Shown here in pieces: positions 24,985-58,330 of a DNA stretch of 64,000 nucleotides. How positions within the stretch are numbered: position 1 is the stretch's first letter; every line of letters starts with the position of its first letter. Source of the DNA: Barthelona sp. PCE. Its lineage: Eukaryota. The stretch covers positions 1,984,001-2,048,000 of the forward strand of contig JAUFOR010000008.1 in assembly GCA_040285745.1 (NCBI GenBank), in the 5' to 3' direction. The position numbers were made by a program, and so were the translations under genes. The notes beneath the pieces are model-generated. The model made no database searches and was not told the origin of the DNA. It was given only the letters and a program-made list of their open reading frames with translations.

Positions 24985-26250
24985 CTAAATTAGGCAAGCG
25001 TAATAAATGTGCCATTTCCAGTGTTCCACGGCACAGACTAGCTGATTAATGATTCGTTTAGACATTTTTTTGTTAGGAACTCCATTTGTATTACGTTCAA
25101 CAAACAAATTTCTAGTTTCTTCGTTAGTTTTGATCTTATGCAAGACCTTTTTGACAGATGAAATAGTCATATCACTCACTCCATAATCGCTCCACTTATA
25201 ACTGTGTTTCCAGTGAGCTTTTGATTCTTCAACACTATATTCACTCAGATCAAGGTAGTATTGGTCATAGTCCATCAGGTGAACTCCCTTTTTAGGAGTG
25301 TATCCGATGTGAAAGACTCGGATACCAGGATTGTTACCGCTGTAAAGAGGTTCTTCATCCATTGGAGAAATTGCTGGTGTCATCCAAATACCATGAGTAT
25401 CACCTACAATGAATGTATCAGTATGAAGATGACCATAGATCTGACCAATAATGTTTTTGTTATTCATATTTTGCATCAAAATCTTAGCTCCCTCAGCCCA
25501 CATCATAGGCATGTCATTATTGCCCATCACGCCCGGGGGGTTGTGCCCGAGGACGAGGATCTTGAAGGGGCAGTCCTCGACGAGAGACTGGAACCACTTC
25601 CACTGCCCCAGCACATCCTTGTTAACATGAGGAAGGTTGGTCGAAGAATACAGGTTGGTATTGATAACGATAACACGGAGCCCAATCTTGTAAAAGTCGC
25701 GGTAGTAGAAGGCACCCTTTGCGAAAGAATCGCGTTCGTTGGGATGGAAAAAGTCCTGCCAATATTTGTGGGCAACACGACTGTACAACCATGTCGATTT
25801 GGCGTTGTGGTGGTAGAGTGGTACCATATCGTGATTGCCAAGAGACAGCATGACATCGCGGCCGGCGAGGTGCTTGCGCATGACACTGCCCATCTTGTCG
25901 ATAGACTCTTCGAGCTGATCGCGTGTGAACTTGAGATCCTCCTTCTTTTCAGTGGCCTTTTGAGGGAGGATGTCGCCAAGAAAAGCGTAGAAATTGACAT
26001 CGGGGAGCGAAGCGGCGAACTCAACGGCACTGTCAATCAATTGGATTGGTGCGTCACAATGCGTGTCTCCGAAGTATGCAGCGCTACCAGTTCCCTTGAT
26101 GCACAAGGACTTTGGGTCAGAGCCAGCGTGGTACTTGTCGGCGAGATGAACGTCTGTAAAAACAGCGAAACTGCCGATTTTCTCTGCGTGGCATGCAGAA
26201 ACGAGTGCCACGAGCAAAATGAGCCCGCTACAAAGTATGTTGAACTTCAT
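24985..26250 (-). CDS. Secreted acid sphingomyelinase-like/Ppn1-family metallophosphoesterase, copy A
   Basis: Signal peptide MKFNILCSGLILLVALVSACHA; motifs TDVH, LGD, GNHD, GHNPPG, GHLHTD, NNPG.R. Confidence 0.88.
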   Translation of the reverse strand: MKFNILCSGLILLVALVSACHAEKIGSFAVFTDVHLADKYHAGSDPKSLCIKGTGSAAYFGDTHCDAPIQLIDSAVEFAASLPDVNFYAFLGDILPQKATEKKEDLKFTRDQLEESIDKMGSVMRKHLAGRDVMLSLGNHDMVPLYHHNAKSTWLYSRVAHKYWQDFFHPNERDSFAKGAFYYRDFYKIGLRVIVINTNLYSSTNLPHVNKDVLGQWKWFQSLVEDCPFKILVLGHNPPGVMGNNDMPMMWAEGAKILMQNMNNKNIIGQIYGHLHTDTFIVGDTHGIWMTPAISPMDEEPLYSGNNPGIRVFHIGYTPKKGVHLMDYDQYYLDLSEYSVEESKAHWKHSYKWSDYGVSDMTISSVKKVLHKIKTNEETRNLFVERNTNGVPNKKMSKRIINQLVCAVEHWKWHIYYACLI

Positions 26251-26340
26251 AACAACAACCAAATAATGAAAGTGAAAAGAAAACTTTTTACAATACAAAT
26301 TACACAATTCCGTGATAAAGCACGGTTATTAAGATTAATT

Positions 26341-26356
26341 GGTGTTTAAGAACACC
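26341..26356 (-). terminator. Histone-type 3' stem-loop, copy A
   Basis: GGTGTT-CTTA-AACACC on the minus strand, ~50 nt after the H3 stop and preceded by an A-rich run. Confidence 0.7.
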
Positions 26357-26407
26357 TGTTTTTTTGATGTTTTTTTTAGTTATATATATGTTTGGATTTG
26401 AAGTTGA

Positions 26408-26843
26408 TTACTCGCGCTCCTCCTCAGCACCGACAAGGAAGGGATCATTGCGGATACGGAGAGCAAGACGCATGTCATCAAGGAAAAGGGTGACACGCTT
26501 GGCGTGGACAGCACAGAAGAGGGACTGCTCGAAGAGGGAGGTGAGGTAAGACTCAGCAGACTCTTGAAGGGCGAGAAGAGCGGTCTTCTGGAAACGGATA
26601 CCAGAACCGTGATCGGAAGCGATACGACGGACGAGCTTCTGGAAAGGAAGCTTACGGAGAAGGAGCTTCTCAGAGGCCTGGAAATCACGGATCTCACGGA
26701 GAGCAGCCATGCCCGGGGGGGATACGCTGCTGACGCTTGTAACCACCAGCGGAAGGGTTCTTGGTGGACTTCTTGGCGGAAGTATCGGTCATGGGGTGCT
26801 TGACGGCGGAGGTCTTGTTAGGTAAAAGCTTGGTTCTAACCAT
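26408..26843 (-). pseudogene. Divergent histone H3 variant, copy A, apparent +1 frameshift (possibly a sequencing error)
   Basis: Identical to 30585-31019 except for G7 (26715-26721) versus C6 in copy B, which splits the ORF at the IPPG codons. Confidence 0.75.
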
Positions 26844-27650
26844 TGTAATGTTTTGACAAGGATATGTACTCTGTAGTAAAAAAATAAATTGAGTAGCTAC
26901 CCCCGGTTGGGCTTGAGGGCTGCAACCGAGATTTTTATTTACACGCAAACCAAGGCACGTGTTTGGTGCTATATCCAGGTATCAGTTGTGTATAAGTGGT
27001 GTAAAATGCGTTAACGGTGAGAAATCTTTTTGTCAATGTTGCGTTTTGTCTTTGTACATATTTTAGTTCACCGAGCAGGGATCAATCGTGTGCGTGCATG
27101 AGCTGCTGCGGATGCAGGATGCTCAAATACGGAAAATGTGCATTTGAGTTTTCTTCCTTCTTTGCCTTTTTGTGTATCGGGGCTTGGGTGTTGTTTTGCG
27201 GGCATGGGGACTGGTTGCTGCCGCTGGGGCTTCAGGCTCATCGTCGTCGTGTTTTTGTGACGTGATCCATGTTGGGCTGTTTTTTGCTGTGCGTTCTGCA
27301 TGCTTGTGCTCTTGGACGCGATCCGTGGTTTGTTGCTTGTGGTGTTTTTGTGGATTTTTTACAACATTTTGCTTAAGCAAAATGTTGAAATTTGTATACT
27401 TTTACCCATAAATAATAAGGGTGATTGTATTCAAGTGCAATATGCTGCTAAAACCATTGGAATTCAGAATAATTGTAAGAAATTGCAAGAACCATCATCC
27501 CCTAATAAAAAAATTTTTTTTATCTTTAAAACTCATTATGGAGCAACTTAATTATATACATGTCCATATAGATAATCTAATTCACTTTATTAGTTTGTTA
27601 AACTATTTATCCACCTTTTCATTTTTTTGTTTCGTTAAGGGGCTATTATC

Positions 27651-28869
27651 ATGTCAAGAACAGTAATTATCGACAATGGAAGTGGTGTATGTTTGCTATT
27701 TTAGTAATTTGGGCTGTTCTAACATTCAGTATATTAAATGTGGTTTCCCCAGTGATCGTTTCCCGCATTCTACATTCCCTAACGTGGTAGGCCGACCCAT
27801 AGCTCGCTCAGGTGCTAATCTGAAGGGTCTTGAAGAAGTTCCAGACCTACTGCTGGGTGATCAAGTTGAACCTTATTTATCAGCACTTCAGCTCACCAGA
27901 CCGATCGATCATGGTATTATCACTCACCTTGATGACCAAAAACTCATCTGGGATTATGCATTCAACAAAAAACTTGTAGTTGACCCTTCAGAGACAAAGG
28001 TTCTGTTAACAGAAGCTCCTTTAAACCCAGTAAGGAACAGAGAGAACATGTTGGAGGTATTATTTGAGAATTTTGATGTTCCTGCCGCGCAAGTATATGC
28101 ACAAGCTGTGCTTACTCTTTACGCTAGTGGTCAAGAGACAGGGTGTGTCGTTGACTCAGGTGACGGTGTCACTCACGTTGTCCCAATCTCCAATGGTATG
28201 ATCTTCCATCATCAAGTGAAAAGATTGAACGTTGCAGGTAGAGATATCACTAGAAATCTTCTTAAATTGATGTGTGATCGTGGTTTCTACTTAAATGAAG
28301 GTTCTGATCTGGAACTAGTCAGAAAAATCAAGGAAGAAGCTTGTTACATTGCCTATGATTTAGATTATGAGAAGAAGCTAAACCGTGAGACCACTGCAAT
28401 CAGTGAAGATTACCGTCTGCCTGATGGTTCATTTTTAAATCTCAGTCATGAGCGATTTTTGGCTGCAGAGTGTCTGTTCCAACCTCATCTGGTTGGATTG
28501 AATGAACTACCGGGTGTTGATATGATGACGTTCAACGCAATTAACGAATGTCCTATTACTGCACGAAAAGGACTATATGAAAACATTTTCGTATCAGGTG
28601 GTACATCAATGTATCCAGGTTTCCCTACTCGTCTTGAACGATCAATTAAGAGCATTTATAAGCGTATTGTAAGAAAGGGAGGTAATGAAGGACGTGTTAA
28701 GATTAAGGTTAAGGCTCCAGCAAACCGTAAAAACTCTGTATTTATTGGTGGTGCAATTCTTGCACAAGTTGCCGAGGCATCAGCAGATTTTTGGATTCAG
28801 AAGAGTGAGTATGAAGAATGTGGAGCAAATTTTGTTGCGAAGAATCGTTGTGGACAGCTTGCTTTTTAA
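27651..28869 (+). CDS. ARP2: Actin-related protein 2, two exons 27651-27686 and 27730-28869
   Basis: Spliced N-terminus MSRTVIIDNGSG|YIKCGF; LLTEAPLNP..NRE, QAVLTLYA.G..TG.VVDSGDGVTH, GGTSMYPGFPTRLE are Arp2-type. Confidence 0.9.
27687..27729 (+). other. Spliceosomal intron, 43 nt
   Basis: GTATGT...TCTAAC-ATTC-AG; removal restores the actin-family DNGSG-x-IK motif. Confidence 0.92.
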
Positions 28870-28889
28870 TTTTCTGCTATTTACAAAAG

Positions 28890-29879
28890 TTAAACTTTTT
28901 GTTTCAATTCTTCCTTTTTGCTATTCTTACCCTTATTGAGTTTGCTAAAGATTGAATCGTAAAGCACACCACCGAACACAAGAGTCATACCAATCCATTG
29001 AATAGGTTTGATAGTGTGTCCGTTCAGTAAAATACTGAGTAAAATTGTAAAGAACTTACGCGTAGTTGTCACAATTGTAAGCACAACACTATTGAAGTTT
29101 GTGATAATTAGGTAAATGAAATTCTGACCTACAACACTTGTGCAACAGAAAACTAATAACTTTGGAATATGCGTTGGATGTCTGAGTAAAAAGTACACTC
29201 CACCAAACAATTGACCTGAGAACAGAGCAGCAATCATTGTGGCGATACCTCCCCAGAAGTTAACACGTAGCATCATCTCTCTGGAATGAGGTTTGTGTTC
29301 TGCAACAACATTGTCTTGGAATGCTGCATAAATTCCGTCTGAGAATAATGAAATAAACACAAGCACGATTCCAAAAGAGCTTGCTTCAAGGGCTACATTG
29401 CTTGAACGTCCTAACAAAAACAAAGCAAGACCACCAGAGATACAAACACTACATATGTACTTGTAAAGAGGATACTTAATCTTTCTGATCAAAACAGATA
29501 CAAGAAGAACAGCGAGTAGCTTACAACACTTTGCTAAAACCTGAGTAGGGTAATCAACAAATAAAATTGCAGCGTTTGAGCAGCTCATTGATAAACCATA
29601 GAAAATACCAATCTTTGCAAACTGTTTACGTGGTGGCTTTTTGATCATTGGTGTTTTGATAAACTGTAACATAGCTCTGGACAATAAATGACAGCAAATG
29701 CATTGTAAAGAAATAGCTAGCAATGGATAGCTAAACTTCTCTTTGTTTGGCCCATATGTCGTCTTGAATACAGCCTCTTGAAATAGTCCAAATACTAAAT
29801 ACGAGGCATAAATTCCAAAAACACCTATGAAAAATAACAGGTATGATTTTTTCTCTGATTTGGTAAACTTGAGTTTCAT
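28890..29879 (-). CDS. UAA-family nucleotide-sugar transporter (SLC35B1/HUT1-like)
   Basis: GIYASYLVFGLFQE, YPTQVLAKCCK, GQNFIY, TTTRKFFTILLS; multiple TM segments. Confidence 0.88.
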   Translation of the reverse strand: MKLKFTKSEKKSYLLFFIGVFGIYASYLVFGLFQEAVFKTTYGPNKEKFSYPLLAISLQCICCHLLSRAMLQFIKTPMIKKPPRKQFAKIGIFYGLSMSCSNAAILFVDYPTQVLAKCCKLLAVLLVSVLIRKIKYPLYKYICSVCISGGLALFLLGRSSNVALEASSFGIVLVFISLFSDGIYAAFQDNVVAEHKPHSREMMLRVNFWGGIATMIAALFSGQLFGGVYFLLRHPTHIPKLLVFCCTSVVGQNFIYLIITNFNSVVLTIVTTTRKFFTILLSILLNGHTIKPIQWIGMTLVFGGVLYDSIFSKLNKGKNSKKEELKQKV

Positions 29880-30584
29880 GTGAGTATATTTTAAGTGTAC
29901 TTAACAAAATGAATAGTTGCAAAAAACAAACCGAAAGAGGAATGATATAAGAAACCAAGTAACAACATATTTAACACATTTATTTTGTTGGAAATTCATT
30001 GACTTCCATGCAAAGATACTTTTCTTCATAATAATGACTAAAATTTCGATTGTATGAGTATACCACCGAAAAAATCCACAAAAACACCACAAGCAACAAA
30101 CCACGGATCGCGTCCAAGAGCACAAGCATGCAGAACGCACAGCAAAAAACAGCCCAACATGGATCACGTCACAAAAACACGACGACGATGAGCCTGAAGC
30201 CCCAGCGGCAGCAACCAGTCCCCATGCCCGCAAAACAACACCCAAGCCCCGATACACAAAAAGGCAAAGAAGGAAGAAAACTCAAATGCACATTTTCCGT
30301 ATTTGAGCATCCTGCATCCGCAGCAGCTCATGCACGCACACGATTGATCCCTGCTCGGTGAACTAAAATATGTACAAAGACAAAACGCAACATTGACAAA
30401 AAGATTTCTCACCGTTAACGCATTTTACACCACTTATACACAACTGATACCTGGATATAGCACCAAACACGTGCCTTGGTTTGCGTGTAAATAAAAATCT
30501 CGGTTGCAGCCCTCAGCCCAACCGGGGGTAGCTACTCAATTTATTTTTTTACTACAGAGTACATATCCTTGTCAAAACATTACA

Positions 30585-31019
30585 ATGGTTAGAACCAAGC
30601 TTTTACCTAACAAGACCTCCGCCGTCAAGCACCCCATGACCGATACTTCCGCCAAGAAGTCCACCAAGAACCCTTCCGCTGGTGGTTACAAGCGTCAGCA
30701 GCGTATCCCCCCGGGCATGGCTGCTCTCCGTGAGATCCGTGATTTCCAGGCCTCTGAGAAGCTCCTTCTCCGTAAGCTTCCTTTCCAGAAGCTCGTCCGT
30801 CGTATCGCTTCCGATCACGGTTCTGGTATCCGTTTCCAGAAGACCGCTCTTCTCGCCCTTCAAGAGTCTGCTGAGTCTTACCTCACCTCCCTCTTCGAGC
30901 AGTCCCTCTTCTGTGCTGTCCACGCCAAGCGTGTCACCCTTTTCCTTGATGACATGCGTCTTGCTCTCCGTATCCGCAATGATCCCTTCCTTGTCGGTGC
31001 TGAGGAGGAGCGCGAGTAA
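30585..31019 (+). CDS. Divergent histone H3 variant, copy B (intact, 144 aa)
   Basis: [53 protein letters not shown]...[17 protein letters not shown]. Confidence 0.93.
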   Translation: MVRTKLLPNKTSAVKHPMTDTSAKKSTKNPSAGGYKRQQRIPPGMAALREIRDFQASEKLLLRKLPFQKLVRRIASDHGSGIRFQKTALLALQESAESYLTSLFEQSLFCAVHAKRVTLFLDDMRLALRIRNDPFLVGAEEERE

Positions 31020-31070
31020 TCAACTTCAAATCCAAACATATATATAACTAAAAAAAAACATCAAAAAACA

Positions 31071-31086
31071 GGTGTTCTTAAACACC
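31071..31086 (+). terminator. Histone-type 3' stem-loop, copy B
   Basis: AAAAAACA-GGTGTT-CTTA-AACACC-AA: perfect 6-bp stem beginning GG with a 4-nt loop, 51 nt after the H3 stop. Confidence 0.72.
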
Positions 31087-31176
31087 AATTAATCTTAATA
31101 ACCGTGCTTTATCACGGAATTGTGTAATTTGTATTGTAAAAAGTTTTCTTTTCACTTTCATTATTTGGTTGTTGTT

Positions 31177-32442
31177 ATGAAGTTCAACATACTTTGTAGC
31201 GGGCTCATTTTGCTCGTGGCACTCGTTTCTGCATGCCACGCAGAGAAAATCGGCAGTTTCGCTGTTTTTACAGACGTTCATCTCGCCGACAAGTACCACG
31301 CTGGCTCTGACCCAAAGTCCTTGTGCATCAAGGGAACTGGTAGCGCTGCATACTTCGGAGACACGCATTGTGACGCACCAATCCAATTGATTGACAGTGC
31401 CGTTGAGTTCGCCGCTTCGCTCCCCGATGTCAATTTCTACGCTTTTCTTGGCGACATCCTCCCTCAAAAGGCCACTGAAAAGAAGGAGGATCTCAAGTTC
31501 ACACGCGATCAGCTCGAAGAGTCTATCGACAAGATGGGCAGTGTCATGCGCAAGCACCTCGCCGGCCGCGATGTCATGCTGTCTCTTGGCAATCACGATA
31601 TGGTACCACTCTACCACCACAACGCCAAATCGACATGGTTGTACAGTCGTGTTGCCCACAAATATTGGCAGGACTTTTTCCATCCCAACGAACGCGATTC
31701 TTTCGCAAAGGGTGCCTTCTACTACCGCGACTTTTACAAGATTGGGCTCCGTGTTATCGTTATCAATACCAACCTGTATTCTTCGACCAACCTTCCTCAT
31801 GTTAACAAGGATGTGCTGGGGCAGTGGAAGTGGTTCCAGTCTCTCGTCGAGGACTGCCCCTTCAAGATCCTCGTCCTCGGGCACAACCCCCCGGGCGTGA
31901 TGGGCAATAATGACATTCCGGTCATGTGGGCTGAGGGAGCTAAGATTTTGATGCAAAACATGAATAACAAAAACATTATCGGGCAAGTTTATGGTCATCT
32001 TCATACTGATACATTCATTGTAGGTGATACTCATGGTATTTGGATGACACCTTCAATTTCACCAAAGGATCATGAACCCTTCTATGACGGCAACAATCCA
32101 ACTGTTCGTATTTACCATATTGGGTATACCCCTAAAAAGGGAGTACACATGATGGATTACGATCAGTATTACCTTGATCTCACAAAGTACGGTCCAAATG
32201 ATAAGATAGCTGATTGGAAGCTACAATACAAATGGAGTGATTATGGAGTGAGTGACATGACCATTGAATCCGCTAAAAAGGTCTTGCACAAGATTAAAAC
32301 TGATCAAACAACCAAAGACCTATTTGTTGAGCGCAATTCGGTCGGTTGTCCTCGCTCAAAAATAACCCCTCGCATTGTTAAACAGCTGGTTTGTGCTGTT
32401 GAGAATTGGGCATGGCACAAGTATTACGCCTGTCTTTTATAG
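31177..32442 (+). CDS. Secreted acid sphingomyelinase-like/Ppn1-family metallophosphoesterase, copy B
   Basis: Same motifs as copy A; first ~246 aa identical, C-terminal ~175 aa diverged. Confidence 0.88.
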   Translation: MKFNILCSGLILLVALVSACHAEKIGSFAVFTDVHLADKYHAGSDPKSLCIKGTGSAAYFGDTHCDAPIQLIDSAVEFAASLPDVNFYAFLGDILPQKATEKKEDLKFTRDQLEESIDKMGSVMRKHLAGRDVMLSLGNHDMVPLYHHNAKSTWLYSRVAHKYWQDFFHPNERDSFAKGAFYYRDFYKIGLRVIVINTNLYSSTNLPHVNKDVLGQWKWFQSLVEDCPFKILVLGHNPPGVMGNNDIPVMWAEGAKILMQNMNNKNIIGQVYGHLHTDTFIVGDTHGIWMTPSISPKDHEPFYDGNNPTVRIYHIGYTPKKGVHMMDYDQYYLDLTKYGPNDKIADWKLQYKWSDYGVSDMTIESAKKVLHKIKTDQTTKDLFVERNSVGCPRSKITPRIVKQLVCAVENWAWHKYYACLL

Positions 32443-32472: not shown

Positions 32473-35400
32473 TTACCAGTCATCATCATCTGAATCAGAG
32501 AAAAGTACGCTGTATTTCGTATTAGAAACTGAAGGTGATACAGATTCACTATCCGTTTCATCGAGAAGAAGAGGTTTTGATGCAACTTCTTCAACTGGCT
32601 CTTCCTCATCTTCGGTAAATGTTATTTGGATTTTTGTGTGCTTAGGAACTTCTTCCTTGACAATGGATGGACTTAACTCCTCAACCTGTTCAGGAACTTC
32701 AGCAGTAACTTCAGGCGATTCCACTACTTCTTCTGTAACTTCTTCAACAACCACAACTGTTTCCTCATCTTCTGTTACTTCCATTGTTTCATTAGGTTCA
32801 TCAAAAACTTCATGCTTTGGTTCTTCAACAACAGGTTCTGGTTCTTCAACAATAGGTTCTGGCTCCTCCTCAACAACAGGTTTTGGTTCTTCAACAACAG
32901 GTTCTGGCTCCTCCTCAATAACAGGTTTTGGTTCTTCAACAACAGGTTCTGGCTCCTCTTCAACAGGCTTTGGTTCTTCAACAATAGGTTCTTGCTCCAC
33001 CTCAACAACTGGTTCAATGACCTCTGGCTCTGATTCGGATTCAACACCAAAAGATGAATCACTGGGCTCTTCAACAGGCTCAACCTCAGGTTCGGGAACA
33101 TACTCATCATTAACAAATTTCTCAGTTTCCTTAGGCTCAGGTTCCTTGGGCTCAGGTTCCGAGTCGGTGTCCCATTCACTGCTGTCGGTGAAAGGTACTG
33201 CAACCTTGTCTGCAACTGGTGGAATGTAGTCATCATCTTCAACACTGTCATTTTCAACAACGGCAGTGTTAACAGCCACACCTCCAAAATCAAAGTCACT
33301 CTCCTCATCACTTTCCACCGTCGGTTCAACGGCAGTGGGCTCAATGTAAACAGGCTCTGGCTCTGGTTCATAGACTTCTTCATCTTCAACCAACTCTTCA
33401 GCTAATTGCTCAGGTTCCGACTCCTCAAAATCTGACTCTTCCTCCTCATAATCTTCCTCATCATCTTCAGGTTCGGGGAACTCACCATACTCTTCGTAGT
33501 GCTTGAACAAAACCCCAATCTCAGATTTGAGAATTAAAGCAAACGAACCAACGACCGTATCATCATCGATAGAGTCGGCAACAGCAAAGTAAAGGTGGTT
33601 AACAACATGCTGGATCTTTTCCTTGGTTCCTTCCCAGTCATCTCTGGGTTCAGCCAAGGTAACCTGATAGTTGGCAATCTCATCCTTGTAGGTATCAACC
33701 TGTAGCTCAAGGGAGTTTGCATGACTTGACCATTGAGTCACAGCGTCCTCATATGATGACAGTGAAGCTTCGAGGGTTGTGATTTTCTCGGTCAGAGCGT
33801 TCTCATTCTCGATCTTTGCCTGTGCTTCCTGACGCAACGAGCTAATGTACCCGTTCAACTCCTCGATCTTCGCAAGATGCTGCTCCTCATCACTTTCCAG
33901 GCGAACAATCTTTTCGTCGCAGTGAGCAAGACGCTTCTCCAATCCACCAATAGTGTCGTTCGAAATCGCAAAATCCGTCTGAACCTTTGACATTTCAACA
34001 CGGAGGGTGCTGGTGTTGTGCTCCTCTGCCGCCAATCTACCGTTCAGTGTTGTGATTCGCTCATCTTTCTGCTTAATCTCTTCGCGTAAATAAGCAACCT
34101 CACCACGGAGCTTGTCAACTTGCTCTAGTTCCATCTTCATGTCACGGACAGTCTGCTCTTCTGCCTCCAGTTGGCCCTTGAGAGCCTCCATTGCTTCTTG
34201 TTTGGCTTCAAGACGTGAATGCATGAAACGAAGGCTGTCATCACGCTCTGTAACCTGCGATTTGAGTTCTCCGACCTGTTTAATCAGAGTTGTTAGACTG
34301 GAAATCACACTTGCTACCGTTGTATCAGCATCAATCTCAAGCGAAAGTTCACTGTTGATACGATCAAACCCGCTGTCAACACGGACTCCAAGATCTTGGA
34401 CGCGCTCAGTAACACCCCTTATCTCCTGAACCACACCGGTATTGGGCATGTTCATCTGGGCCTGCATCTGAGGTTGCATCTGAGGTTGCATCTGAGGTTG
34501 CATCATTGGTTGAGGCTGATAATTATTCTGATAGTAACCATTCTGATACATTCGTTGCTGCATCTGGGGATCCATGTGATGCGGCTGAGACATGTACTGC
34601 GGCTGACGACGATCGTACTGATGCTGCGGCTCAGGTTCATGGTGATACGGATTGCTACTTCCATAATAATGCGGCTGCACAGGTTGACTGTGTCTAGGCG
34701 CAGCTGAGTGATGTGAGTGTTGTGAATGTTGCCCAGTGTACTGCTCAGAGCGTGCTGTCTCACTGACTGGTGCCTCGTGCACATCTTGTTTGGGACTTTT
34801 TCCCGCTATTTCATCTGCAAAACGTGCTGCAGCCTCATTCTCAGCGTATGCCTGTCGCCTGATCTTCTCGATCTTTTCCTCATGGGAAAGCTCAGGTGCA
34901 GCGGATTCATCAGCGATAACTGCGACAGGTTGAGCTGTCGGCTTTTTAGGCATTTTAAACTTGAGTAAATCGACCTCAAAGATAAGATTAGAGTTGGGTG
35001 GAACGCCTGCTACCTCCTGATCACCGTAGCCAAAACGTGCTGGAACACGGACAATTCTTTTTCCGCCTCTCTGCATGCCAATCATTCCAATACTGAGTCC
35101 ACTGACAATTTTCTCACCGCCAATAACAAAGGCAAATCCCTTACTGGTCTTGCACTCATCAACGAGCCTACCACGACTGAAATGACCTTCATCAATGTAA
35201 ACTGCATAATTAACTTTTACCTTAAACCCATCACCAATAGCGGTTCCTTGACCTATGACTTCATCATTGAACTCAACCTCTGGCTCGACAAACGGCTTAA
35301 TGTGACCAATAAATGTCTGGGCAAGATCTTTGCTCTGGAATCCAAGAATATAATCGCTGCCTTGAAATTTAAACGACCAATAAACATCATCGTGGATCAG

Positions 35401-35688
35401 GTCTAGCTTTAAATTTGCACCAAGAACTAACTCTAATACTCCTCGGCCTTGAATGAAAAAGCGAATCATTCCTTTACCTGATGTTTGTTCTTTAACAACA
35501 TTAAAAGCATCTGCAACCTGATGATAACCGTTGTTGGTCACGTACAGCGTCGCAGGTGAACTGAAAAGTGTTGTAATTAATGGTGCTGCATTGCCAGACT
35601 GAACTACTGGTGCTTGAGGTCTCTGATATGAAAAATCTGGGTCCTCATCGGACTCATCGAAGAGACTATCGAATTTGTTAGGTGCCAT
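32473..35688 (-). CDS. FKBP15-like protein (FKBP domain, coiled coil, acidic tail)
   Basis: FKBP domain (F.F.IG..KIVSGL..GM.GM..GGKR.V.VP..FGYG....GVPPNSNLIFEVDL); acidic N-terminal SLFDESDEDPDF and C-terminal LFSDSDDDDW resemble FKBP15 ends. Confidence 0.78.
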   Translation of the reverse strand: MAPNKFDSLFDESDEDPDFSYQRPQAPVVQSGNAAPLITTLFSSPATLYVTNNGYHQVADAFNVVKEQTSGKGMIRFFIQGRGVLELVLGANLKLDLIHDDVYWSFKFQGSDYILGFQSKDLAQTFIGHIKPFVEPEVEFNDEVIGQGTAIGDGFKVKVNYAVYIDEGHFSRGRLVDECKTSKGFAFVIGGEKIVSGLSIGMIGMQRGGKRIVRVPARFGYGDQEVAGVPPNSNLIFEVDLLKFKMPKKPTAQPVAVIADESAAPELSHEEKIEKIRRQAYAENEAAARFADEIAGKSPKQDVHEAPVSETARSEQYTGQHSQHSHHSAAPRHSQPVQPHYYGSSNPYHHEPEPQHQYDRRQPQYMSQPHHMDPQMQQRMYQNGYYQNNYQPQPMMQPQMQPQMQPQMQAQMNMPNTGVVQEIRGVTERVQDLGVRVDSGFDRINSELSLEIDADTTVASVISSLTTLIKQVGELKSQVTERDDSLRFMHSRLEAKQEAMEALKGQLEAEEQTVRDMKMELEQVDKLRGEVAYLREEIKQKDERITTLNGRLAAEEHNTSTLRVEMSKVQTDFAISNDTIGGLEKRLAHCDEKIVRLESDEEQHLAKIEELNGYISSLRQEAQAKIENENALTEKITTLEASLSSYEDAVTQWSSHANSLELQVDTYKDEIANYQVTLAEPRDDWEGTKEKIQHVVNHLYFAVADSIDDDTVVGSFALILKSEIGVLFKHYEEYGEFPEPEDDEEDYEEEESDFEESEPEQLAEELVEDEEVYEPEPEPVYIEPTAVEPTVESDEESDFDFGGVAVNTAVVENDSVEDDDYIPPVADKVAVPFTDSSEWDTDSEPEPKEPEPKETEKFVNDEYVPEPEVEPVEEPSDSSFGVESESEPEVIEPVVEVEQEPIVEEPKPVEEEPEPVVEEPKPVIEEEPEPVVEEPKPVVEEEPEPIVEEPEPVVEEPKHEVFDEPNETMEVTEDEETVVVVEEVTEEVVESPEVTAEVPEQVEELSPSIVKEEVPKHTKIQITFTEDEEEPVEEVASKPLLLDETDSESVSPSVSNTKYSVLFSDSDDDDW
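32815..32995 (-). repeat. Coding tandem repeat (V/I-V/I-EEPKP / EEEPEP units, 21-24 bp)
   Basis: Alternating ggttcttcaacaacagg / ggctcctcctcaacaacagg units. Confidence 0.85.
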
Positions 35689-57617: not shown

Positions 57618-58330
57618 ATGGGCAAAAAGAATGAATTCGTTAACAATATAAGATGAAGTTTAGAGGAAATATTAACGATGAAGAGGAATAACGATAAAAT
57701 TTAACATAACAATGTTGATTTAAACCTAATAATGACTGAAATTTGTAATGAAATTACTATAAGAAACCCTAAAGATGAATTACATTTTAGTGCTTTAGAC
57801 TTCTTTAAAGAACATATTGACACGCTTGAGTCTCGCAAGGATGGGCAATTTTCGTTGCCTCAATCCGCCGTTTCCCCATTTGGCAAGTATTCAAGCAAAC
57901 AAAATCAAATAGGCGTGATTTATGTAGATTCGAGTGATTTCAGTACAATATCTGATGATCTCAACTTTTTTGTAACCCAGGAAGCGAACATCAAGTAATT
58001 TGTTTGATATTATAAAATCTGGATCCGATGATTATATGCAACATTCTTTACTGGTTGAAAGTGATGATGAAAGTGGGTTTAAAGAATTTGATGGGGTATC
58101 ATGGTTCACTTTCGTGTTTGGAGGATCCAATTTTACTATTACTTGAACAATTGAATAGTATATTATCTTCATGTGTTTTGACAATAATTGCACACCATAT
58201 TCGATTCGAGTATATGTTGAAAATCGTATATTATCTTCATGTGTTTTGACAATAATTGCACACCATATTCGATTCGAGTATATGTTGAAAATCCGTTTGA
58301 CCTCTATCATTACCATTTGCAATAATAAAA
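57618..58330 (+). pseudogene. Decayed gene of unknown family
   Basis: ATG 57618 is in frame with ORF 57732-57998 but interrupted by TGA 57654 and TAA 57702; coding-like text continues through further stops and a frameshifting duplication; 3' end uncertain. Confidence 0.5.
58158..58293. repeat. Perfect 68-bp tandem duplication (2 copies)
   Basis: gtatattatc...gttgaaaatc at 58158-58225 and 58226-58293. Confidence 0.95.

Follow-up and report, generated by a model that had tools for sequence, protein, structure and literature searches.

On Saccharomyces chromosome XIV, the flip/flop region consists of 4.2-kb inverted arms around a 24-kb spacer that occurs in both orientations across strains; by that account, non-allelic conversion homogenises the repeats, their boundaries are stable, and inversion is a by-product (PMC9731477). 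Primate X and Y palindromes have arms >99% identical around a unique spacer and GC-richer than their flanks by about 4 to 5 points, a bias polarised there by outgroups, and their inversions are described as rare (three in 378 Y chromosomes) (PMC8981503, PMC3723533). GC gain is also reported for the frequently converted part of mouse Fxy at the pseudoautosomal boundary (PMC3431222), for genes that relocated to the inverted repeat of plastids, where they come under conversion (PMC5010901), and for multicopy histone genes, whose dosage-sensitive copies are homogenised and GC-rich (Galtier 2003, via PMC8981503 and PMC3924837).

Here we describe a locus of this known kind, alongside the primate palindromes, the yeast flip/flop, and Fxy, in a metamonad, Barthelona sp. 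PCE (GCA_040285745.1, contig JAUFOR010000008.1). The window analysed comprises 64,000 nucleotides (1,984,001 to 2,048,000, forward strand), and all positions below refer to it. Like flip/flop, the locus has gene-bearing inverted repeats of a few kilobases with unique genes between them, in a compact microbial genome. However, flip/flop carries sporulation genes in its arms and histones in its spacer, whereas in Barthelona histone H3 lies in the arms; arms and spacer measure 1.85 and 2.7 kb instead of 4.2 and 24 kb, and inversion is predicted from one assembly while both orientations are documented in yeast (PMC9731477). The primate palindromes are far larger and sex-linked, and their GC excess compares with about 30 points at free sites in Barthelona (GC3; H2B non-coding DNA) (PMC8981503, PMC3723533). 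With arms of 1.85 kb, the locus works alike but is not a member of the strict class of mammalian sex-chromosome palindromes (>10 kb, sex-linked; 10.1101/800185). Fxy involves allelic X-Y recombination (PMC3431222), whereas conversion here would be non-allelic, in the nucleus of a protist, with two outer gene halves as internal controls; the plastid case concerns an organelle repeat (PMC5010901). Unlike in the histone genes of Galtier 2003, the informative signal comes from flanking DNA and a bystander gene, and the H3 codons follow a high-expression pattern.

An inverted duplication around Arp2 and a transporter gene

Self-BLAST of the window gave a single long inverted match (25126-27360 versus 32301-30069). 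Together with global alignment, it reproduced the arms given by the first-pass annotation, at 25511..27360 (1,850 bp) and 30069..31916 (1,848 bp), and the unique spacer of 2,708 bp (27361-30068). That annotation had described four 1-nt homopolymer indels as the only differences between the arms. In the assembly there are indeed 0 substitutions and exactly four 1-nt indels (left-arm positions 26359, 26370, 26715, and 26913), but a homopolymer context holds for three of them, in runs of 6 to 9, the remaining one being just T versus TT. All four are probably consensus errors. The locus thus has inverted arms >99% identical around a unique spacer, as expected of a gene-converted palindrome. Relatedness ends at once inside the inner boundary, the spacer being unrelated, and decays stepwise outward of the arms (93, 89, 73, 69, and 64% identity per 100 alignment columns), reaching noise beyond the phosphoesterase stop codons. 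A perfect 26-bp palindrome (27362..27387) lies in the spacer, starting 2 bp past the left inner boundary.

The whole structure spans 6.4 kb, in which Arp2 and a transporter gene are enclosed by an inverted duplication of a phosphodiesterase gene, H3, and the DNA upstream of H3; open reading frames and Pfam matches bore out the claimed order (phosphoesterase, H3, element, Arp2, transporter, element, H3, phosphoesterase). Arp2 (27651..28869, + strand) has a 12-codon first exon and a 43-nt intron (27687-27729) predicted from GT/AG and a 391-aa database record. The second spacer gene (28890..29879, - strand) belongs to the UAA family of nucleotide-sugar transporters according to Pfam, "SLC35B1-like" being the label first given to it. 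GC3 in the spacer is low (0.31 to 0.34). We also considered an inverted-repeat centromere of the Komagataella type, whose central core is gene-free, and rejected it on the two intact genes in the spacer.

Histone H3 and its upstream DNA

The right arm encodes an intact, divergent core histone H3 of 144 aa (30585..31019, + strand), while the left copy (26408..26843, - strand) is frameshifted in the assembly, a point absent from the first-pass annotation; the cause is one extra G at 26715 that probably reflects an error of the consensus. Behind the right copy lies a histone-type 3' stem-loop with a 6-bp stem and a 4-nt loop (31071..31086, + strand; Rfam Histone3, E = 0.0078, below the gathering score), with a mirror copy on the left (26341..26356, - strand). 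Genome-wide, the stem-loop pattern had six matches, all of them behind core histone genes (two H3, two H4, H2A, and H2B), and none in the control. The arm H3 is multicopy, colinear with H3.1/H3.3 (E = 1.6e-35), and shows high-expression codon usage, whereas two other H3-like genes lack both this usage and the stem-loop. Judged on these sequence features, it is most likely the bulk H3 of the genome, and the earlier reading as a histone variant is not supported. CenH3 typically has lost Q68 and F84 and has a longer loop 1; here Q and F are kept and the fold domain aligns without gaps, so this assignment was rejected. A metagenome scan for relatives of the H3 gave 355 pattern matches, 0 of them confirmed.

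Upstream of H3, at the inner end of each arm, is a C/A-rich stretch with a GC content of 0.505 (30069..30361, + strand; mirror copy at 27068..27360, - strand), probably regulatory DNA of H3. Three other identities were rejected: a structured RNA, since Rfam gave no match and the fold z was -1.5; a gene, since a 77-aa open reading frame has no Pfam match and the open frames are short; and a mobile repeat, since the stretch occurs in two copies only. A motif common to the upstream regions of the H3 and U3 arms has four exact matches genome-wide, although the pattern was derived from those very sites; a looser version matched non-coding DNA in 10 of 12 cases, seven of them known before the pattern was written, and is a lead only.

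A step in synonymous GC at the arm edge

The outer edge of the arms falls within a gene for an SMPDL3-like acid phosphodiesterase of 421 aa, present on the left (24985..26250, - strand; Pfam Metallophos and ASMase_C) and on the right (31177..32442, + strand; best PDB match SMPDL3A, E = 1.9e-32). Codons 1 to 246 are within the arm. The two proteins share 376 of 421 residues, and every difference lies after residue 246. Beyond the edge, an intermediate stratum of codons 247 to 294 (25368..25510, - strand; mirror about 31917-32058) has a dS of 0.34, and an outer stratum of codons 295 to 421 (24985..25367, - strand; mirror about 32059-32442) is synonymously saturated (pS 0.81, dN 0.23). Both outer halves are intact, diverged, and under purifying selection, in agreement with the first-pass view that the genes stay homologous but diverged past the boundary. 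Searches for relatives of the phosphodiesterase returned the paralog plus matches of ≤35% identity only.

Synonymous GC is raised only inside the converted tract, the pattern expected of GC-biased gene conversion: GC3s is 149/236 (0.63) inside the arm versus 56/161 (0.35; p = 2.9e-8) and 47/159 (0.30; p = 6.6e-11) outside, the two comparisons being non-independent because both outer halves are set against one shared inner half. Change-points fell at codon 243 (support 240-259) and codon 269 (240-272), with the arm boundary at codons 246/247. None of the background open reading frames, 143 on C8 (maximum 0.19) and 67 on C2 (maximum 0.15), shows a drop as large as the 0.34 and 0.29 measured here. 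Together with the pS of the outer part, this step indicates a duplication far older than the arm identity implies, and it backs the proposal of an old duplication with ongoing arm-to-arm conversion beyond what identity alone could do.

A single recent copying event that overwrote one arm, with nothing ongoing, would also yield perfect identity and sharp edges, and the 26-bp palindrome at one inner edge might mark such a break. However, the low GC3 of either donor (0.30 to 0.35 in both outer halves) would then persist, and the intermediate stratum, seemingly converted once, shows no GC gain (GC3s 11/42, right copy). We read this stratum as an older, rare reach of conversion; at least two events would be needed for three strata, and a single copying is highly improbable. 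If two saturated copies merged once and G/C won at each mismatch, however, the expected GC3 would be 0.57, which cannot be told apart from the observed 0.63 (p = 0.25).

It is also very unlikely that a real duplication with moderately diverged arms was made to look identical by assembly or polishing, or that the whole is a fold-back artefact. Repeats do retain uncorrected indels and are therefore not fully resolved, but the indels of the arms are independent and the arms of a similar H2B pair retain one substitution, so the copies were not simply pasted. A fold-back cannot produce a unique two-gene spacer, diverged intact outer halves under purifying selection, or the GC3 step. Since neither a fold-back nor a single recent copy would give this step, arm conversion appears long-running.

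The arms might instead be converted while the GC step comes from codon or chromatin selection near a strongly expressed histone, or from a GC-richer 5' donor. Non-coding GC is not raised throughout the arms: the distal element upstream of H3 has 0.505 versus 0.27, the proximal upstream DNA just 0.38, and the stretch between H3 and the phosphodiesterase 0.255. C accounts for most of the rise (C4 0.43; G4 0.14, equal to the background of 0.15), and GC3 varies regionally, single-copy genes elsewhere reaching 0.55 to 0.6. Against codon selection, codons with a purine at the end are kept (30/109 four-fold codons inside the arm, as opposed to 2/211 for beta-tubulin; p = 1e-13) and those ending in T become fewer (p = 0.005), unlike in H3 and tubulin, a profile that fits GC-biased gene conversion and not translational selection. 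Against expression or chromatin, upstream GC is 0.29 to 0.38 in dispersed core-histone and beta-tubulin genes (10/10) versus 0.61 in the H2B pair and 0.42 in H3. As for a GC-richer donor, the search revealed no third paralog of the phosphodiesterase, and we regard these alternatives as improbable. Conversion may be centred on H3, as first suggested; GC3 shows no decay with distance from it and increases slightly toward the outer edge.

Other near-identical gene pairs

The H3 layout is not unique, because H2B and U3 snoRNA also form near-identical inverted pairs and EF1-alpha a direct pair. The H2B pair has one mismatch in 897 bp, and its non-coding GC is 0.61/0.63 inside versus 0.31 to 0.36 outside (p = 2e-28); compared with a dispersed H2B copy, the twins carry G/C against A/T at 16 sites and the reverse at 3 (p = 0.004), a count unpolarised by an outgroup. 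EF1-alpha upstream DNA likewise has a GC of 0.46 versus 0.27/0.30, while the U3 arms show no rise (0.39 versus 0.37 outside, p = 0.49). Near pairs, 1.5 to 9.4 kb apart, differ by 0 to 1 substitutions, whereas dispersed histone and tubulin copies are 94.6 to 98.8% alike and showed no GC asymmetry in any of nine pair comparisons.

Palindromes are not the rule for multicopy genes, given that tubulins, H2A, and H4 are dispersed and the EF1-alpha pair is direct. None of the four HSP70-family and seven ubiquitin-family matches are neighbours, and on C3 what looked like an inverted pair of small-GTPase genes was dismissed, the DNA repeat being absent. Assembly frameshifts were seen in the H3 and EF1-alpha twins.

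Proposed mechanism and significance

We consider it likely that the locus is an old inverted duplication whose arms are kept identical by repeated GC-biased non-allelic gene conversion. The inner 1.85 kb would be converted between arms, probably within one chromatid and aided by the short distance. Mismatch repair favouring G/C would, over many rounds, have made free sites inside the arm GC-rich, and the unconverted outer part of the phosphodiesterase would have retained the AT-rich third positions of the genome. The arm edge may owe its stability to accumulated divergence that blocks strand exchange, and perhaps also to selection on two different C-terminal halves. The pair is probably maintained because two matching bulk-H3 genes are selected for, with the 5' 58% of the phosphodiesterase as a putative passenger of H3 conversion. 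An occasional crossover is predicted to invert the spacer without breaking a gene.

A broader picture, rather doubtful when taken as a whole, is that intrachromosomal conversion, possibly without meiosis, maintains dosage-critical genes of this metamonad (H3, H2B, U3, and EF1-alpha) as close twins, under a GC bias that could double local GC. Populations would carry the H3 spacer in flipped form, selection for two enzymes that share an N-half but differ in their C-halves would fix the phosphodiesterase edge, and bias would have replaced the histone stem-loop behind the H2B twins with GC-rich DNA, altering their processing.

GC-biased gene conversion is a known, textbook process, and here its edge is unusually sharp, giving an internally controlled footprint in Metamonada, with no earlier report among the top 20 of 153 and 15 of 18 open-licence papers listed. 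Twins of this type look young and bear frameshifts introduced by assembly, which calls for caution in reading such genomes. As converted, once-converted, and unconverted strata lie side by side in one gene, the rate, bias, and tract limits of conversion could become measurable.

Structure of the palindrome and its outer genes

In the window, which spans C8:1,984,001-2,048,000, self-BLAST returned a single long inverted match, and global alignment of the left (25511-27360) and right (30069-31916) arms gave no substitutions and four 1-nt indels around a 2,708-bp spacer of unrelated sequence, so that the arm coordinates of the first-pass annotation proved exact. The Arp2 encoded in the spacer is identical to a database protein whose record assigns it to Barthelona, a genus of metamonads. 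Outside the arms, identity drops from 93% to about 65% up to the phosphodiesterase stop codons. One indel, at 26715, puts the left H3 out of frame. The four arm indels are probably consensus errors, because the EF1-alpha twins (see below) show the same pattern, with no internal substitutions over about 1.5 kb and one of the two copies disrupted by a single homopolymer indel. A perfect 26-bp palindrome (27362-27387), the longest of five of at least 20 bp in the 778 kb scanned, abuts only the left of the two inner boundaries, starting 2 bp into the spacer.

The outer genes encode SMPDL3-like acid phosphodiesterases (Pfam; best PDB match SMPDL3A, E = 1.9e-32), the only two in the genome (10.23 Mb searched, 8 contigs). 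The copies are identical at 376 of 421 residues, and all differences lie beyond residue 246. Codons 247 to 294 have a dS of 0.34 and a dN of 0.04, and codons 295 to 421 a pS of 0.81 and a dN of 0.23. Both copies are thus old and under constraint, and each divides into three strata. The old duplication proposed from the sequence alone is thus borne out by a pS of 0.81 beside identical codons 1 to 246. Directly beyond the right phosphodiesterase (32473-35688, minus strand) lies a 1,071-aa protein with an FKBP domain, a coiled coil, and acidic 45-bp tandem repeats. A tandem duplication of about 68 to 72 bp (98.6%) was seen at 58154-58293, within a long ORF-poor stretch.

The arm H3 and its stem-loop

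Four of the 15 histone-fold matches in the genome are H3-like. The two arm genes have a GC3 of about 0.6 and a stem-loop (6-bp stem, 4-nt loop) 3' of the stop codon, while the other two are single, with a GC3 of 0.34 and no stem-loop. The stem-loop pattern occurs six times genome-wide, always behind a core histone (H3 twice, H4 twice, H2A, and H2B), and never in the reversed control; that of H3 folds as drawn (z = -3.1) and matches Rfam Histone3 weakly (E = 0.0078, below gathering). Histone stem-loops are reported as common across protists (214 of 310 species; 10.64898/2026.10.14.759114). Because of this stem-loop, its GC3, and its colinearity with H3.1/H3.3 in the alignment, the most likely reading of the arm H3 is as the bulk H3, in a lineage whose histones are very divergent, and not, as initially annotated, as a histone variant.

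The arm H3 (30585-31019) keeps lysines near positions 4, 9, 14, 27, and 36 of H3.1/H3.3, has other residues where S10, K56, and K79 would be, and is extended at its C-terminus by an acidic stretch; H4, H2A, and H2B are likewise divergent. The low-GC3 single-copy genes (L006, C3:117746-118051; L007, C1:1201420-1201767) are candidate CenH3 or other variants.

The C/A-rich element (30069-30361, mirrored at 27068-27360) is most plausibly DNA from the H3 upstream region, GC-enriched through the same process as the arm. An A/C-rich motif of 18 to 22 nt near the inner arm ends (27342-27359 and 30070-30087) is common to the H3 and U3 upstream regions (C2:148169-148186 and 149827-149844), with looser forms upstream of beta-tubulin, and is possibly an upstream activating site.

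GC3 step at the arm edge

Ongoing conversion, a recent copy, and an artefact cannot be told apart by identity alone, but they can by composition. Synonymous GC3 is 149/236 (0.63) in phosphodiesterase codons 1 to 246, against 56/161 (0.35) and 47/159 (0.30) in the outer halves (p = 2.9e-8 and 6.6e-11). Likelihood change-points fall at codons 243 (240-259) and 269 (240-272), and the identity boundary at 246/247; this coincidence supports the ongoing arm-to-arm conversion suggested in the first-pass annotation. The differences of 0.34 and 0.29 exceed the background maxima obtained by splitting mechanical ORFs (introns ignored) at the same proportion, 0.19 among 143 other ORFs of at least 300 aa in 406 kb of C8 (mean 0.005, SD 0.06) and 0.15 among 67 ORFs from a 200-kb stretch of C2.

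The inner composition is a weak-to-strong shift and not codon optimisation. Highly expressed genes favour T and rarely use purine-ending four-fold codons (beta-tubulin 2/211, H3 1/83), whereas the inner phosphodiesterase keeps purines (30/109 versus 46/126 outside, p = 0.16) and has lost T (32/109 versus 60/126, p = 0.005). The stratum apparently converted once shows no gain (11/42), and the GC gain therefore needs repeated rounds and a long-stable edge. Three observations speak against this. One merge of the copies, with G/C winning every mismatch, would give a GC3 of 0.57, which does not differ significantly from 0.63 (p = 0.25). Inside the arm the gain is mainly in C. The 157-bp gap between H3 and phosphodiesterase is AT-rich (GC 0.255), which we ascribe to putative constraint on stem-loop and promoter.

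Other near pairs in the genome

An inverted H2B pair (L022 and L023, C3:825,079-825,975 and 835,390-836,286; 9.4-kb spacer) has one mismatch in 897 bp. Its non-coding arm GC is 0.61 and 0.63 versus 0.31 to 0.36 just outside (p = 2e-28), and at 16 of the 19 weak/strong sites that set it apart from the dispersed third copy, the pair has G/C (p = 0.004, unpolarised). The twins lack the stem-loop present behind the dispersed copy, which is also absent behind two of three H2A copies.

The direct EF1-alpha pair (L092 and L093, C2:908795-910347 and 914667-916223; 5.9 kb apart) is identical, intron included, bar the homopolymer indel, and its upstream GC is 0.46 versus 0.27/0.30. An inverted U3 snoRNA pair (L086 and L087, C2:147552-148274 and 149739-150461; Rfam ACEA_U3, E = 4e-8, below gathering) is perfect over 723 bp but shows no GC rise in its arms (p = 0.49), being either a counter-example or a younger pair; its 1,464-bp spacer has no long ORF but includes a single copy of a dispersed repeat. 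Among dispersed histone and tubulin copies, similarity is 94.6 to 98.8%, with no GC asymmetry. Perfect identity goes with nearness, not orientation.

Pairs of this sort are uncommon: in the 406 kb of C8 the palindrome is the only inverted pair, and in the 200 kb of C2 there is none. The H2B, U3, and EF1-alpha pairs were found through family search or by accident, in a reading of less than one tenth of the genome, and no density is claimed.

A roughly 240-bp dispersed repeat (L069, L072-L078) has dozens of matches, some in LTR-like direct pairs 5.85 kb apart; one inverted pair (L113, C8:529516-529754 and 532300-532538; 2.5 kb apart, 99% identical) has in common a small variant that five other close copies lack.

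Proposed mechanism and significance

Beyond the palindrome structure, the strata, the GC step, and the replicate at H2B, all directly observed, we propose that the arms undergo repeated non-allelic conversion with repair favouring G/C. The edge would be held by heterology, and perhaps also by selection on the diverged phosphodiesterase C-halves, as described for opsins (PMC3924837), while the palindrome itself may be retained for H3 dosage. Rare crossovers are predicted to invert the spacer harmlessly; the yeast study gives about 4% as the share of conversions that end as crossovers (PMC9731477), and only three inversions are reported as seen for human P6 (PMC3723533).

In its workings the palindrome resembles the flip/flop inverted repeat of Saccharomyces (PMC9731477) as well as primate palindromes, whose arms are given as 46% GC versus 41% in flanks (PMC8981503); it is no member of the large sex-linked class. 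Its intragenic step parallels those described for mouse Fxy (PMC3431222) and for genes relocated to the plastid repeat (PMC5010901). Among top-ranked open-licence literature, there was no report of GC-biased conversion in such repeats in metamonads. The H3 palindrome is a real feature of a known kind; it brings no new mechanism, and what makes it valuable is its clean internal control and the lineage in which it occurs.
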